Part shown: positions 1-30,331 of the stretch, one piece after another
Layout of the letters: every line of letters starts with the position of its first letter
Numbering within the stretch: position 1 is the stretch's first letter
From: Clostridia bacterium
GTDB taxonomy: Bacteria > Bacillota > Clostridia > TANB77 > UBA1234
Direction of reading: 5' to 3'
NCBI GenBank assembly: GCA_017462965.1
Contig: JAFTQC010000022.1
Location: forward strand, 96,242 to 160,241
Length of the DNA: 64,000 nt
Position numbers and translations under genes: made by a program
Notes under the pieces: model-generated
The model's database searches: none
Told to the model about the DNA's origin: nothing
Seen by the model: only the letters and a program-made list of their open reading frames with translations

Positions 1-357
1 ACGGTATTATAAATTTTTTGAATATCTGAAACTTTAATATCAACCAACTTTTTATCATGAATAGGGAGTAGGTAGTTGTTGAAAATAGTGTCATAGTCTC
101 TTAAAGTATCTTCAGATAGATTCTTTAGGTTGGCTCGCATTTCTTTGTAAGAATGAAACCAATCTTTAAATATAATAGAATCATTTTTTGATGTAAGACC
201 TTTTTCATGCTTGTATATAAACTCTGTCATTTGTTTCTCTAGTTCTTTTTTATCCTTGTTGTAAAGCCATTTTCGCTGTTCTTTGCCGTTTGAATCTCTA
301 CCTAAATAGACAATTGCAGCCCAACGATCTTTATATTTTCTAATATGACCTCGCATA
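1..357 (-). CDS. int: Phage tyrosine integrase, N-terminal part (gene continues past window start)
   Basis: My translation of minus strand from ATG at 355-357: MRGHIRKYKDRWAAIVYLGRDSNGKEQRKWLYNKDKKELEKQMTEFIY..., typical integrase N-terminal arm-binding domain; RBS aggagg upstream. Confidence 0.75.
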
Positions 358-541: not shown

Positions 542-754
542 ATGATTATTATGAAAAGTAAATTTTTGTATTATTTTACTAAAATAAATACTTATGTTTT
601 TATAACGTGTCTTCTTTATTACATTCAAAAATTTATTATAAATATCTTTTTGAAAATTCCAGAAAACTTATTGCTAGAAGTTATTTATTTTGCTTTAGCT
701 CTCTTGTTTATAAAAAAGCATGTAATAATTGATTCTCCATATTTAAAAGATTAG
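542..754 (+). CDS. Small hydrophobic hypothetical protein
   Basis: ORF with aggag RBS; AT-rich, weak. Confidence 0.3.
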   Translation: MIIMKSKFLYYFTKINTYVFITCLLYYIQKFIINIFLKIPENLLLEVIYFALALLFIKKHVIIDSPYLKD

Positions 755-1827
755 TTAGTTATATCATCGATGGAAATTTGATTTTCATCGATTTTTTTAT
801 TTGGAGTTGTGCGTTCTTCATAAGGTGCATAAGCTTTTAAAATTTCTTTGTGTTTCTTTAAATCATTTTTTGATTTTAAAATTTCTTGATTATTTTGATT
901 TTTTTCTTTTATAAATTCTAATATTGAGCCAGCTAATCCTTTAGTATCAATATTAAATTTTACAGTTCCAAGTAATTCTAAATTAAATTTGGCACCAAAA
1001 AGAGCTAAAGATATTGCACCTAATACTAGGCCTCCTCCAGTAGCATACCCAATAAATTCAATTGGTCCTGGAGATTGTACATTTAATCTTAAATCTATAT
1101 CATTTTTATCATAAGATGACTCTGTTATGGTGTTGAATACGTCTAGAATACTTAATACTGAAGAAATAAAACTAATAATACTAGTTGCTGGAATGTTTGC
1201 GGTTGTTGTCACATCATATACTACATGAACTAAATCGTCTTTCACAAAAATAGGAGAGAGGGTTCTATCTATATAGTTACTGTATGCACAAGCATCGCTA
1301 ATTGCAGCATGTGAACACATTAGTTTGTATAAATATGGATCTAATAAATCTCTTTTTACAATTTTAATCCAATTTACGTTACGTCTTCTGTTATAAGTAC
1401 ATTCTGGATATGTGGATTCTTCTTGAAAATCTATTTTCTTTTCATATGGATATACAACATCATCAATTAATTCTCCAAAGGCAATTTGAAATGAATTTTC
1501 ACTAGGTATTAGAACAATATCACCAGGACGCATTTCATAAGTAAATCTCATTATTTGATTATAAATTGCACCTGGTCTTTTTTCTTTTTCTTCTTCATAG
1601 AGTTTTGCTATTTCTTCTAATCTTTCTTTTTCAGGCATTTGAGAATATACATTTATATCTTCAATTTTATCCCAGCCTAATGCTATATAGTTATTAAAAA
1701 GAAAATCTTCAAAAAATTTTCCACTTTCAGTTCTTACTAACCAATATTTTCTATTCTTATCAATTATAGGTATGTTAAGTAATTGACATATTAGTTGCAG
1801 TTCTTGTAATTCTTTTTCTTGCATCAT
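751..1827 (-). CDS. Hypothetical protein: N-terminal soluble domain (EVE/PUA-like motifs YWLV...GW...PGD) plus two C-terminal TM helices; candidate superinfection-exclusion/abortive-infection protein
   Basis: 358-aa ORF between integrase and repressor; hydrophobic segments IPATSIISFISSVLSILDVF and IEFIGYATGGGLVLGAISLALFGAKF. Confidence 0.6.
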   Translation of the reverse strand: MMQEKELQELQLICQLLNIPIIDKNRKYWLVRTESGKFFEDFLFNNYIALGWDKIEDINVYSQMPEKERLEEIAKLYEEEKEKRPGAIYNQIMRFTYEMRPGDIVLIPSENSFQIAFGELIDDVVYPYEKKIDFQEESTYPECTYNRRRNVNWIKIVKRDLLDPYLYKLMCSHAAISDACAYSNYIDRTLSPIFVKDDLVHVVYDVTTTANIPATSIISFISSVLSILDVFNTITESSYDKNDIDLRLNVQSPGPIEFIGYATGGGLVLGAISLALFGAKFNLELLGTVKFNIDTKGLAGSILEFIKEKNQNNQEILKSKNDLKKHKEILKAYAPYEERTTPNKKIDENQISIDDITN

Positions 1828-1886: not shown

Positions 1887-2756
1887 TTATTCGTTAATAA
1901 ATGTATTTGTCTCACGCAATTCATAATTTTCTGTTTTTTCAATGCAAAAATCTCTAAATAATATTCCTGTTGCAAGAGCATCAGATAAAGCACGATGAGC
2001 GTTATCTCTATATAAATTTGCATATTCACAGACAGTAGTAAGTTTATAGTTTTTTATATAATCTGGATTTATAACTTTTCGAGCTAGTTCTAAAACATCA
2101 TAAAATTTTCGTTTTTCAGAAAATAAATCTAAATTATTTACATATAAAAATTTCAAATCAAATTCTAAATTATACCCAACAATGTTAAATCCTTTTATAA
2201 ATTCTGAAAATGAATCAATTACTTCTGAGATATTAGGACAATTCTGTAGCATTTCATTAGTTATATTGTTAATCTTTGTTACTTCTTCTGAAATTTCTTT
2301 TTTAGGTTTTACTAAGGTCGTCATATATTCTGTTGGAGCATAGTTTTTGAATTTAATGGCAGATATTTCAATGATATCATCATTTTTAGATGATAAACCC
2401 GTTGTCTCAACATCTAACACTATAAAATCTTTAAATATTTGTTTAGAAGTTTTTTTAGTTATTTGTGAAAATTTATATTCAGGTATCTCTTTTAATATTT
2501 TTTTAATATAATCAGTGTTATTTTTGATATTGACAGTTTTGATGTCCATGGCATTTAGAGTATTATTGAACGAAAGCTTTATCTCTTCAATTCTTTGTTT
2601 TCTTTTTTCTTGATATTCTTTTTCTTGTTTTTGCTGTTCTGTTTTCGAATCCTTTTTTGACTTATGAACAATATAGATTATTATGCTTATTATTAAAAGT
2701 AAAAAAACAAAATCCATTACACCTGATTCTCCTCCTAAAAGTATATTTTTATTCAA
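1887..2756 (-). CDS. DnaQ-like DEDDh 3'-5' exonuclease with N-terminal TM anchor and coiled coil
   Basis: Motifs VLDVETTGL (Exo I), ...HRALSDA (Exo III); N-terminal FVFLLLIISIIIYIV. Confidence 0.7.
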   Translation of the reverse strand: MNKNILLGGESGVMDFVFLLLIISIIIYIVHKSKKDSKTEQQKQEKEYQEKRKQRIEEIKLSFNNTLNAMDIKTVNIKNNTDYIKKILKEIPEYKFSQITKKTSKQIFKDFIVLDVETTGLSSKNDDIIEISAIKFKNYAPTEYMTTLVKPKKEISEEVTKINNITNEMLQNCPNISEVIDSFSEFIKGFNIVGYNLEFDLKFLYVNNLDLFSEKRKFYDVLELARKVINPDYIKNYKLTTVCEYANLYRDNAHRALSDALATGILFRDFCIEKTENYELRETNTFINE

Positions 2757-3423
2757 ATATTTTGCTAATTCTAGCTTCTACAACTTTACCAATAATCTTA
2801 AAATTACAAGTATTGTCTAATTTTCTGGGTGGGTAATAAGAATTAAAAGCAACTAAATCTATGTGATCATCATATTTAACAATCTTTTTTACAGTTGCTT
2901 CTTCACCATCTATTAAAACAATTCCAATTTGCCCATTTTCTACATCATTTTGCTGGTGAACTATAACAATATCATTGTCATAAAGTACTGGTTGCATACT
3001 ATCGCCAGTAACTTTTAATGCAAAATAGTTTTCTGGGTCTGATACATCTTTATCTAAATAGATATATCCTATAAAATTTTCTTCCACTAAGTAGTTATAT
3101 CCAGCTTTTACTGTTCCTAAAAGAGGGAAGACTTTTTTGGAGTCGATTGTTGTTTTAAATTGTTCTTTATATTTTTCTTCATTCAGATAGATTAATTGAT
3201 CATCATCTAATTTTTTCATTAAAACATCTATATCCATATCCATAGCGTTTGCTAAGGCTTTTAATGTTTCAATACTGGGACTAATAGGTTTATTAGTAGA
3301 AGGGTTTATGTTTTTTTCGAGCATATGAATGTAGCTTCTACTAGTTCCTATTTTGTTTGCAAAATCCTGAAGGGATAAGTTGTGTTCGTCTCTATATTCT
3401 TTTATAATTTCTCCTAAATTCAT
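2749..3423 (-). CDS. CI-like phage repressor (XRE HTH + S24 LexA-like peptidase)
   Basis: MNLGEIIKEYRDEHNLSLQDFANKIG HTH; GDSMQP and K-containing S24 motifs; RBS aggagg; start chosen at internal ATG 3423. Confidence 0.85.
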   Translation of the reverse strand: MNLGEIIKEYRDEHNLSLQDFANKIGTSRSYIHMLEKNINPSTNKPISPSIETLKALANAMDMDIDVLMKKLDDDQLIYLNEEKYKEQFKTTIDSKKVFPLLGTVKAGYNYLVEENFIGYIYLDKDVSDPENYFALKVTGDSMQPVLYDNDIVIVHQQNDVENGQIGIVLIDGEEATVKKIVKYDDHIDLVAFNSYYPPRKLDNTCNFKIIGKVVEARISKIFE

Positions 3424-3439
3424 AGTAATTCCTCCTTTC

Positions 3440-3550
3440 TTACAGTAACATTGTACAATATATTTTACAAAAAAACAATAATTTTTGTAAAATATACTTG
3501 ACACAAAAAAACGATAATGCTATATTGTATTTGTACAGTAAATAGAACAA
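3440..3550. promoter_or_regulatory. Divergent cI/cro promoter-operator region
   Basis: Repeated TGTACAGTAA operator motif at 3440-3461 and 3532-3550; ttgaca(3498-3503)-17nt-tatatt(3521-3526) for cro. Confidence 0.6.
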
Positions 3551-3567
3551 ACAAAGGAGTGATATGA

Positions 3568-3759
3568 ATGAAGAATCGAGTTAAGGAATTTAGAGAACAA
3601 CAAGGAATGACACAAGAAGAATTGGCTGAAAAGTCTGGAATTTCAAGAACTACAATTTCAGGATTTGAAAATGGTACTATAGAAATAACAACTAATACAA
3701 CTATGGATAAAATTTCTAAAGCGTTGGGAAAGAAGACAAAAACTGTATTTTTTTTATAA
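3568..3759 (+). CDS. Cro-like XRE-family HTH regulator
   Basis: EFREQQGMTQEELAEKSGISRTTISGFENG; RBS aaaggag. Confidence 0.8.
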   Translation: MKNRVKEFREQQGMTQEELAEKSGISRTTISGFENGTIEITTNTTMDKISKALGKKTKTVFFL

Positions 3760-4117: not shown

Positions 4118-4378
4118 ATGAAAATAGTTAATAAGAAAAGATTTATAACGTTTATAATGACAAATTTAACAATTTTAGTTTTACTGTTTAATGTTTGTTT
4201 AGCAAAAACAGAAACTGTAACGGAAGATTATACAGTTGCAGCAGGTGATACACTTTGGTCTATCGCTTGTGAAAATGCTGAAACTGATATTAGAGAGTAC
4301 ATATATGAATTGAGAGAAATAAACAACTTAAACGATTGTATGATCTATCCAGGTCAAACAATAAAAATTATCAAATAG
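4118..4378 (+). CDS. Secreted LysM-domain protein
   Basis: N-terminal hydrophobic segment; YTVAAGDTLWSIA...IYPGQTIKI LysM. Confidence 0.6.
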   Translation: MKIVNKKRFITFIMTNLTILVLLFNVCLAKTETVTEDYTVAAGDTLWSIACENAETDIREYIYELREINNLNDCMIYPGQTIKIIK

Positions 4379-6483: not shown

Positions 6484-6720
6484 AATGGATGGTTTAAAAA
6501 TATTTGCTGTAATACTTGTAAGTTATTTTGCATCAATTGGTATTTACTTCACACTTCTCAGAATTTGGCTGACTATTGATGCTAACAAGAGAATAAGACA
6601 ATTAAAACGAGGAAGAAGGGAGCAATTAAAATGGAAGGAATAATAATAACAGCAATAATATGCGTAACTATAATAATTTTAGCTGATTAATATTAACAAA
6701 AGAAAGTAGTGTGATTAGGA

Positions 6721-7290
6721 TGAACTACGTTGAACCGATTAGAGATAAAAATTTGATAGATGATATGTGTACATATTTAAAAAATAAAAATAAACGTGAT
6801 TGTATTTTATTTATGTGCGGAATCTACATTCGGGCTTAGAGTTTCTGATTTGCTTTTGTTCAAAGTAAAAGATTTGAAGAAACGTAGACAGATCTCAATT
6901 AGAGAAAAGAAAACAGGAAAGCAGAAAATATTTAATATACCTGATGAATTTTATTCTATTCTAAATCAATATTTGGATACAAGGAATGATGATGAGTATC
7001 TTTTTAAAAGTAGGCAAGGAAATAAAGCAATTACAAGGGCGCGAGCATATCAAATTTTAAACAAGGCTGGGAAACATTTTAATTTAGAAAATATAGGAAC
7101 TCATACAATGCGAAAAACTTTTCGGATATTGGTATTACAAAACGTATAACGATATTGTAGGGCTTATGCAAATTTTAAATCATTCCAGCGAAGCAATTAC
7201 TAAAAGATATATTGGAATTGAGCAAGAAGAATTAAATAGAAAACAGAAGAAATTTAAACTGATTGATAAATTTAATTGGGAGGTAGGTTA
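6721..7290 (+). pseudogene. Small phage tyrosine recombinase (integrase-like) disrupted by two 1-nt frame shifts
   Basis: Three consecutive frames: 6721-6840 MNYVEPIRDKNLIDDMCTYLKNKNKRDCILFMCGIYIRA*, 6796-7149 ...GLRVSDLLLFKVKDL...HTMRKTF..., 7150-7290 GYWYYKTYNDIVGLMQILNHSSEAITKRYIGI (box II with catalytic Y); shifts at cggg (~6835) and ctttt (~7120). Confidence 0.65.
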
Positions 7291-29951: not shown

Positions 29952-29967
29952 GAGTTATATTATTTTT

Positions 29968-30331
29968 TGGTGGAGATGAGGAGAATCGAACTCCTGTCCG
30001 AAAATTCTTCCACATGAACCTCTCCGAGTGCAGTTTATCTTTTTAGATTCCCAAAGGTTAAACGCCGACAAACAGGCTTTTAATTTTGGTAACTTTATAA
30101 ATACCCACTATCTCAAAGTTTTGATAGTTTTGTTTCCACTTTAGATGACGCTTGTTCTTAATGAAAGTGGCACAAAAAGACAAACGTAGCCGCAACTAGG
30201 CAGCTAAAGCAACTTTATTGTTGTTAATTATTTATAATTCTCACATTTTTTAGATGGCCAAGTGAGAATCCATCACTCGCTATTCATCCTTCTAAATATC
30301 CGTCGAAACCTTTACATCCCCGTGTTTAGAA
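29968..30331 (-). ncRNA. ssrA: tmRNA (SsrA)
   Basis: Minus-strand 5' GGGGATGTAAAGGTTTCGACGGATA..., tag reading frame ending ...VALAA-stop (GTT GCT TTA GCT GCC TAG), 3' T-arm/acceptor GGAGTTCGATTCTCCTCATCTCCACCA; promoter TTGCAA-N17-TTATAAT upstream. Confidence 0.9.

Follow-up and report, generated by a model that had tools for sequence, protein, structure and literature searches.

What might a prophage gain from an exonuclease that is encoded directly beside its repressor and that begins with a hydrophobic segment? The question is raised by a gene on the minus strand, at positions 1887 to 2717 of the window (the whole stretch of 64,000 nt from a gut Clostridia bacterium that was analysed here), the left half of which holds a siphovirus-like prophage of ~31 kb. 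We show that the gene is accessory to its prophage, being one alternative occupant of a cargo slot between repressor and integrase, and that its product, judged from sequence, genuinely belongs to the DEDDh superfamily of 3'-5' exonucleases and has an intact catalytic centre. We suggest, at a probability of roughly 45 %, that this product is a superinfection-exclusion or defence nuclease which would attack the 3' ends of DNA entering the cell; we favour this reading because of the position of the gene in its operon, the evidence for a variable slot and the analogy with known systems.

The first step is to establish what the gene encodes. The original prediction, made from the DNA alone, had placed the gene at 1887-2756, and an ORF does occupy 1887..2756; however, it runs on the minus strand, and its TTG start at 2756 is purely mechanical. 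This codon overlaps the stop codon of the repressor gene (TAA, 2751-2749), lacks a ribosome-binding site (RBS) and conflicts with the N-termini of homologues and with the protein held at NCBI, and we reject it as the start of the exonuclease. The true start is the ATG at 2717, which is preceded by a Shine–Dalgarno sequence, shortens the ORF by 39 nt and gives a product of 276 aa that is 100 % identical to the NCBI protein P0001 from a metagenome-assembled genome ('3'-5' exonuclease [Clostridia bacterium]'). In the alignment, the same N-terminal start position is common to all close homologues. The gene and its parts are as follows.

1887..2717, minus strand: exonuclease coding sequence, 276 aa plus the stop codon at 1887-1889; identical to P0001 (100 %) and matching RNase_T with 103 bits.
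2729..2736, minus strand: Shine–Dalgarno sequence AGGAGGAG (2736-2729), read from the sequence, 11 nt upstream of the ATG.
2664..2711, minus strand: N-terminal hydrophobic anchor FVFLLLIISIIIYIVH, aa 3-18, predicted N-out/C-in; part of the helix of aa 2-56 in the AlphaFold2 (AF2) model.
2550..2663, minus strand: charged K/E/Q-rich spacer, aa 19-56, helical in the AF2 model.
2427..2549, minus strand: pre-domain segment with the motif (M/I)PEYKFSxITKxT, aa 57-97.
1932..2426, minus strand: DnaQ-like DEDDh 3'-5' exonuclease domain, aa 98-262, with D102, E104, D187, H241 and D246.
1890..1931, minus strand: C-terminal tail, aa 263-276, disordered in the model.

The Pfam family RNase_T (PF00929) matches aa 99-253 with E=3.4e-29 and 103 bits, against a gathering cut-off of 24. 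Within this region the Exo I D-x-E consists of D102 and E104 (VLDVETTGL), as aligned to the PolC exonuclease domain 2p1j, the Exo II aspartate is D187 (GYNLEFDLKFL), and the Exo III H-x4-D that defines the 'h' subclass consists of H241 and D246 (HRALSDA). All five DEDDh residues, which the original prediction had asked to see confirmed by alignment, are invariant in the TM-anchored (transmembrane-anchored) homologues of alignment A1 (20/20) and in the best homologues (120/120). The AF2 model built on alignment A1 has a mean predicted local distance difference test (pLDDT) score of 90.4 and an RNase H-like fold, and a Foldseek search of the PDB with it returned DnaQ/PolC-type exonucleases at probability 1.0 and 22-38 % identity; a sequence search of the PDB matched the DEDDh domains of the same types with E down to 5e-25. 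The top-ranked structures are the DnaQ domain 8h18 of S. thermophilus, the PolC exonuclease domain 2p1j, the S. aureus DinG exonuclease domain 8zef, epsilon, ExoX and RNase T, 8h18 being the best structural match (Foldseek E=5e-14; TM-score 0.83, normalised to the target). These nearest structures are trimmers of DNA ends with long substrates, not dinucleases of the Orn/NrnC type. The DnaQ-like assignment made earlier is thus borne out by profile and fold alike.

Membership of the superfamily does not make the protein a replication subunit. The PHROG families phrog_192 and phrog_14632 match it over nearly its full length, and the NCBIfam domain model TIGR00573 'dnaq' is the sole NCBIfam model passed (98.9 bits, cut-off 71.5). 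The equivalog models for epsilon, PolC and DinG all score well under their cut-offs (TIGR01406, 80.1 against 222.7; PRK05711, 82.3 against 196; PRK06310, 89.5 against 236; PRK06807, 140.6 against 335). Moreover, the protein ends 30 residues past D246, and has no epsilon-type C-terminal polymerase-binding segment.

Where in the cell the nuclease would act depends on its N-terminus. By Kyte–Doolittle hydropathy the hydrophobic segment lies at the extreme N-terminus (aa 3-18), and its nature as an anchor was judged by hydropathy and charge rules, on a stretch of 15-16 residues. A TM segment in the same place is predicted in 48 of 120 close homologues and in 80 of the 150 best representatives at 50 % identity, and such recurrence argues that the segment is not a chance feature. 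Among 25 single-TM homologues, 24 have no K/R before the segment, while the 15 residues that follow it contain a mean of 3.5 K/R and most segments directly abut K/R; homologues that possess a pair of TM helices or a TM2 domain likewise have their K/R cluster after the last helix. A Sec signal peptide has the opposite charge layout, with a positive n-region ahead of the hydrophobic stretch, and on these grounds we argue against a cleavable signal peptide and in favour of the N-terminal membrane anchor that had been predicted. Considering this charge layout together with the positive-inside rule, we infer that the anchor is oriented N-out/C-in and that the nuclease would face the cytoplasm at the membrane.

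The remainder of the protein links this putative anchor to the catalytic domain. A coiled coil had been proposed to follow the TM helix; the AF2 model does contain a single continuous helix (aa 2-56), but 61 % of aa 19-56 are K/R/D/E/Q, and aa 19-42 hold a single hydrophobic residue (Y35). On this composition a canonical coiled coil is not supported, and the stretch, which varies in length and sequence across the homologues of the alignment, looks like a charged single-helix spacer and not like a heptad coil. The pre-domain segment (aa 57-97) packs on the catalytic domain in the AF2 model with a pLDDT of 86-94 and carries a subfamily motif that is kept in alignment A1; most of the representative hits begin to match the query at aa 20-50 and hence cover this segment. 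We also observe that the motif (aa 77-92; 2442-2489, minus strand) is common to forms with TM segments, forms with a Zn-ribbon and short forms. The tail YELRETNTFINE (aa 265-276; 1890-1925, minus strand) has a pLDDT below 50 in the AF2 model; it is conserved in the closest relatives (P0002, P0004-6 and P0008) and is retained even in a homologue of 57 % identity. Both the tail and the pre-domain motif may be elements for binding a partner or a substrate.

The position of the gene within the prophage provides the second line of evidence. The features needed here are the following.

1..357, minus strand: 5' part of the tyrosine integrase gene, which runs off the left end of the window; the whole gene (371 aa, PF00589) is present in locus L003.
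751..1827, minus strand: DUF8426/PDC-S02-like candidate defence gene (PADLOC PDC-S02, phrog_10226, PF28530).
2749..3423, minus strand: CI-like repressor gene (Pfam HTH_3 and Peptidase_S24; phrog_4).
3427..3567, no strand: divergent promoter/operator region between the cI-like and cro-like genes, from consensus matches only.
3568..3759, plus strand: cro-like helix-turn-helix (HTH) gene (Pfam HTH_3, 64 bits), divergent from the repressor operon.
29967..29987, no strand: att core TTGGTGGAGATGAGGAGAATC at the ssrA 3' end, right boundary of the prophage.

A tmRNA gene lies at 29968-30321 on the minus strand (Rfam RF00023, 164 bits), and an exact 21-bp repeat of its 3' end (TTGGTGGAGATGAGGAGAATC, plus strand) is found beyond the integrase, at L003:11647-11667, which indicates that the prophage is integrated in ssrA; its integrase lies at the end far from the tmRNA gene. 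On the minus strand the order of genes is integrase, DUF8426/PDC-S02-like gene, exonuclease and CI-like repressor. The cro-like and Xis-like HTH genes lie opposite to this repressor operon and are followed by the genes for the replication organiser, the single-stranded DNA-binding protein (SSB), terminase, portal, capsid and tape measure. No polymerase gene was seen among the annotated prophage genes, which for replication include only a DnaD-like organiser and SSB. The exonuclease gene comes second in the repressor operon; it lies apart from the replication module, whose genes are on the other strand. The repressor gene is directly upstream and co-oriented, as had been noted earlier, and the 31-nt gap between the two genes contains the RBS and no terminator-like site. 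In the region between the cI-like and cro-like genes, promoter-like sites at 3491->3462 (minus strand, 10/12) and 3498-3526 (plus strand, 11/12, with TG), both consensus matches only, accompany an inverted repeat, ATATTTTACAAAAA / TTTTTGTAAAATAT.

This arrangement recurs well beyond the window. The contigs encoding seven homologues (40-100 % identity; single-TM, multi-TM and Zn-ribbon forms) were looked up, and in 7/7 a cro-like gene diverges from a repressor gene that is followed by the exonuclease, then by no gene or one variable gene, and then by the integrase, with repressor–exonuclease gaps of 2-41 nt. The repressor partner is of the S24 type in 5/7, this window included, and is a short HTH protein in L172; at L171:4621-7415 the exonuclease lies between the genes of an ImmR-like HTH repressor and an ImmA-like Peptidase_M78 protein, with an integrase gene thereafter, a layout which indicates insertion within an operon of the immR-immA-int type. 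In a wider sample of 53 non-redundant exonuclease clusters, drawn from IMG/VR and other fetched loci, a co-oriented HTH gene stands no more than two genes upstream in 32 and an integrase no more than three genes downstream in at least 23 (many contigs end there); for the TM-bearing clusters, a co-oriented HTH repressor-like gene lies within two genes upstream in 12/13. Given this conserved adjacency, co-expression of the exonuclease with the repressor in the lysogen is a well-founded inference.

The slot in which the gene resides is nevertheless not reserved for it. Since loci reached by way of the exonuclease say nothing on its dispensability, relatives of the repressor were searched instead, and five of them were looked up, in prophages whose repressors are 58-95 % identical to that of the window (local alignments). 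The repressor–recombinase interval is empty in L176 and L177, holds two small ORFs in L179/L180 and a 352-aa SAP-domain protein in L181, and in L178, whose repressor is 59 % identical to the window's, the repressor–integrase slot is occupied by a 193-aa DUF4352 protein (L178:4745-5326). The gene that follows the exonuclease varies too, being DUF8426 in the window and, in the other look-ups, DUF3800, an M78 peptidase, a 106-aa ORF or none. Varied or empty slots of this kind identify the repressor–integrase interval as a variable cargo slot. With the window's repressor as the only query protein, IMG/VR gave no match.

The exonuclease belongs to a large family, in which it is the accessory module rather than the enzyme that changes. 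When 1.84 billion representatives at 50 % identity were searched exhaustively with HMMER, 475 reached E<=1e-30. The best 150 comprise the 80 with one or more predicted TM segments before the exonuclease domain, 34 with a CxxC Zn-ribbon and a rest with another module or none; the 120 closest clusters at 90 % identity comprise the 48 with TM segments, 50 with a Zn-ribbon and 22 others. In addition, IMG/VR relatives at the same genomic position have the architectures exo-BRCT, 2TM-exo-BRCT and TM2-exo-BRCT. By these comparisons the family keeps its catalytic domain and exchanges its accessory module, and the predicted tethering to the membrane, far from being unusual as the original prediction had it, is common in the subfamily, accounting for the majority of the best 150, and has functional precedents in Mpr, AbiP/PdpSau and TREX1 (discussed below). 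The BRCT and Zn-ribbon modules suggest polymeric DNA as the substrate.

In INPHARED no protein of an isolated phage covers >=80 % of the exonuclease, and the matches in cultured phages (GenBank/INPHARED) extend over the exonuclease domain only and are labelled DNA polymerase or epsilon. In BFVD one structural match is nearly full-length; it comes from an uncultured gut siphovirus and bears the label 'DNA polymerase III subunit alpha'. The only names given to the family as such are 'DNA polymerase III epsilon' and '3'-5' exonuclease'. A scan of genome contigs gave distant relatives only (<=40 % identity), in many phyla. Literature searches found no characterised member of the family and no study of a membrane-anchored DEDDh exonuclease in a prophage. 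The putatively membrane-tethered exonuclease is a widespread, uncharacterised prophage cargo, though conceptually not an unprecedented one.

How could such an enzyme exclude other DNA? In the mechanism that we favour, the exonuclease would be made in the lysogen together with the repressor and would be tethered at the membrane, where foreign DNA emerges. It would there attack free 3' ends before they are protected or the incoming genome circularises; such ends could belong to an injected linear phage genome, as 3' cohesive or terminally redundant ends, or to other entering DNA. By its tether the enzyme would be concentrated at the sites of entry and, being constitutively active, kept off chromosomal 3' ends, while the resident phage would be spared, its DNA being already integrated and the operon being off upon induction. 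DEDDh enzymes require a free 3'-OH, and cyclic messengers, having none, would be poor substrates; since the closest structures trim DNA ends and the sister forms carry BRCT or Zn-ribbon modules, the degradation of nucleotide signals, which the original prediction had offered beside that of incoming DNA, appears weak.

Comparison with known systems helps to place this proposal. The DnaQ/PolC-type domains (epsilon, PolC exo, DinG exo and ExoX) are homologous in fold and have an identical DEDDh set, but the protein described here is not part of a polymerase or helicase, falls below the equivalog cut-offs, lacks the epsilon C-terminus, has a predicted N-terminal anchor and comes from the immunity operon of a prophage. 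With Cas2-DnaQ and the CRISPR DEDDh proteins (8h18; Cas2-DEDDh 8fy9/8fyc) it would share the role of a stand-alone trimmer of DNA 3' ends and an immunity context; those forms are without the anchor, the spacer and the pre-domain motif, whereas the prophage protein has neither a Cas2 fusion nor cas neighbours. Mammalian TREX1 is a DEDDh 3'-5' DNA exonuclease with a single TM tether that clears foreign or misplaced DNA from the cytosol; it differs in being eukaryotic and anchored to the endoplasmic reticulum by a C-terminal tail, and its homology is at the level of the superfamily only. The Old protein of phage P2 is a prophage exonuclease that is expressed in the lysogen and excludes another phage; it belongs to the OLD family (ATPase and Toprim), is soluble and has another polarity and mechanism. 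Two further candidates were rejected, namely the olg1/sie1 'DEDDh' product of Pseudomonas phage Fc02, a weak precedent since 7.9 kDa is too small for a DEDDh domain, and, as relatives, the DEDDy diDNases of mobile elements, which are of a different subclass.

Three further bacterial systems can be compared. M. smegmatis has in Mpr a 3'-5' DNA exonuclease anchored in the membrane, for which the injected linear genome is the proposed target and whose nuclease-dead mutants lose phage resistance (PMC12596739). It is an analogy and not a relative, its nuclease region being unlike known nucleases, its DUF4352 being needed and its gene being chromosomal (PMC12596739). As a separate observation, the DUF4352 that Mpr requires for phage resistance (PMC12596739) is the domain found in the cI–integrase slot of L178. 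The anti-phage proteins AbiP of Lactococcus and PdpSau of S. aureus prophages combine an N-terminal TM helix with a cytoplasmic nucleic-acid-binding domain; this domain is, however, an OB-fold binder and not a DEDDh enzyme, the proteins act by abortive infection, and pdpSau is linked to lysis genes rather than to the repressor (PMC10127798). In lactococcal temperate phages the genes for Sie2009-type proteins lie between integrase and repressor; these proteins are made in the lysogen, associate with the membrane via a hydrophobic N-terminus and differ in being small and non-enzymatic and in blocking DNA injection (PMC7693887). The exonuclease has the same layout, lying between integrase and repressor and co-oriented with the latter in the window and in 7/7 look-ups, and it had no match to a Sie-annotated PHROG.

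Several points weigh against an exclusion or defence nuclease. The function assigned to the exonuclease rests on context and analogy, and a 3'-5' exonuclease by itself would be a weak barrier to double-stranded DNA with blunt or 5'-overhanging ends; the sparing of the cell's own DNA ends is explained by the tether argument alone. That tether is a short hydrophobic segment (15-16 residues) predicted by hydropathy and charge rules only, and many sister proteins from the same genomic position have a Zn-ribbon (50/120) or BRCT module in its stead, so that location at the membrane would not be essential. The adjacency to repressors is partly a sampling effect, the loci having been found via the exonuclease. 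Finally, the PADLOC hits are at the level of the domain only: the 'DEDDh, CRISPR-associated' model (E=6e-39) covers just the exonuclease domain, and the PDC-S48 profiles are matched in part.

Neither of these PADLOC models supplies a better identity. The matches to PDC-S48 span positions 5-175 of 411 and 17-179 of 512 of the profiles, which is the exonuclease domain alone, and the same partial match is obtained with ten diverse relatives; we therefore reject membership, and add that literature searches found no paper on PDC-S48. A CRISPR-associated DEDDh or Cas2-DEDDh protein is likewise rejected, there being no Cas2 domain and the neighbours being the CI-like repressor and DUF8426 genes, with no cas gene. 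As far as profiles and neighbours can tell, the exonuclease is not an epsilon subunit, not a member of PDC-S48 and not CRISPR-associated.

The alternative that survives best, though we consider it unlikely, is an abortive-infection effector, in which the anchored nuclease would be inactive or harmless at the membrane until infection and would then cut 3' ends of host or phage DNA or RNA and so kill or arrest the cell. AbiP and PdpSau have the same layout of a TM helix and a cytoplasmic nucleic-acid-binding domain and act by abortive infection (PMC10127798), the gene sits in a variable accessory slot, and its neighbour encodes a PDC-S02-like candidate defence protein with a hydrophobic C-terminus. 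The look-ups, however, revealed no conserved sensor or regulatory domain and no antitoxin-like partner, the next gene being variable; a distributive DnaQ-type exonuclease alone would be an improbable killer, and the fully intact set of catalytic residues implies constitutive activity.

Distinctly less plausible is a modulator of the lysogeny switch, which would trim 3' single-stranded DNA (ssDNA) ends, lower the signal that activates RecA or ImmA and thus stabilise lysogeny against spurious induction. The close linkage to the repressor (gaps of 2-41 nt in 7/7 look-ups) and the location of the L171 gene between those for ImmR-like HTH and ImmA-like M78 proteins would suit such a role, as would the fact that in E. 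coli ssDNA 3'-5' exonucleases limit SOS induction. Yet prophages with repressors 58-95 % identical to that of the window do without the exonuclease, which therefore does not belong to the core switch; its partner repressor may be of the S24, short-HTH or ImmR type, and the tether would keep the exonuclease from the nucleoid, the source of the inducing ssDNA.

We give only a slim chance to a counter-defence or signal-degrading nuclease that would serve the phage by breaking down linear oligonucleotide messengers or the ssDNA made by defence systems (retron msDNA, DRT cDNA). Dedicated di- and oligonucleotidases do occur among the DEDD enzymes, and mobile elements carry some of these (PMC11706625); the CRISPR-associated PADLOC model is matched at E=6e-39, and the related phage L170 has a Tad2-like gene, so that phages of this kind do encode counter-defences. 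Against this, cyclic messengers offer no free 3'-OH, the nearest structures belong to trimmers of long DNA substrates and not to Orn/NrnC-type dinucleases, and the BRCT and Zn-ribbon sister forms suggest polymeric DNA; further, the gene lies in the lysogenic and not in an early lytic operon, and the CRISPR-associated match is confined to the exonuclease domain, with no cas genes adjacent.

Transforming ssDNA enters the cell 3' end first, and the 3'-5' polarity and the inferred position at the cytoplasmic membrane face would suit an attack on ssDNA leaving the uptake channel. A barrier to natural transformation or conjugation, which would protect the prophage from deletion by recombination with prophage-free DNA, would also fit expression with the repressor in the lysogen, as suggested by the 7/7 look-ups; with no sign of competence in the host and no link to com genes seen, this idea is wholly speculative and we hold it to be very improbable. 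A replication proofreading subunit is scarcely credible, for although phrog_192 and phrog_14632 bear the names 'DNA polymerase III epsilon' and 'DNA polymerase exonuclease subunit', TIGR00573 'dnaq' is passed and GenBank phage homologues are labelled DNA polymerase, the epsilon and PolC equivalog models fall far under their cut-offs (80 against 222.7 for TIGR01406; 82 against 196 for PRK05711), the protein stops 30 residues past Exo III with no polymerase-binding segment of the epsilon type, the annotated prophage genes include no polymerase, the gene forms part of the lysogeny module, the replication genes being on the other strand, and a membrane anchor is incompatible with a replisome subunit.

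The surroundings of the gene deserve brief description. The DUF8426 protein has 358 aa, matches the N-terminal 130 positions of PDC-S02 (E=4.9e-20) and has a hydrophobic stretch near its C-terminus. Its gene accompanies the exonuclease only in copies of the same prophage, the slot being variable elsewhere, and we accordingly reject a functional pairing of the two; DUF8426 is probably a second, independent defence-type cargo. Convergent with it, at 542-754 on the plus strand, is an ORF for a very hydrophobic protein of 70 aa, which has an equivalent of 67 aa in L003 and for which no PHROG match was found; a hairpin with a T-run after this ORF, at 766-802, is the only terminator-like site in the first 4.2 kb. 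An 86-aa LysM-domain protein with a hydrophobic N-terminus is encoded in the early rightward operon at 4118-4378 (plus strand), between the Xis-like HTH gene and SSB, and LysM genes occupy the same place in related prophages (L006:3792-4058; L181:3084-3359), an unusual site for a peptidoglycan-binding module. In the early operon, a small tyrosine-recombinase-like gene at 6720-7279 (plus strand) is split by two frameshifts into three reading frames, its pieces being 78-89 % identical to an intact 186-aa homologue at L170:150-710; in L003 no gene was called at this position, and the split gene is either a pseudogene or an assembly error. The Tad2-like protein of L170, a related prophage with a TM-anchored exonuclease, has 78 aa (L170:3644-3880; PF11195, the anti-Thoeris sponge family) and is encoded beside the cro-like gene.

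Finally, we raise the more far-reaching and still rather doubtful possibility that the exonuclease represents a large class of single-gene prophage immunity factors, in which a DnaQ-type exonuclease in the repressor operon is combined with an interchangeable targeting module (TM, TM2, Zn-ribbon or BRCT), the anchored form being a bacterial counterpart of TREX1 that would destroy invading linear DNA where it enters. If this were true, hundreds of prophages of gut Clostridia would carry a nuclease-based exclusion that is absent from current defence catalogues. Should the enzyme prove not to degrade incoming DNA, the exonucleases would still constitute a well-defined accessory gene family. Genes that temperate phages express in the lysogen shape the entry of other phages and mobile elements, and the interval between integrase and repressor is the classic home of exclusion genes in Gram-positive phages, its known occupants being small, non-enzymatic membrane proteins. 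If the exonuclease does degrade incoming DNA, an enzymatic mechanism acting at the site of entry would join superinfection exclusion, a frequent mis-annotation in gut phage genomes would be explained, and the protein would provide a compact, single-gene system for aiming a non-specific nuclease by location alone.

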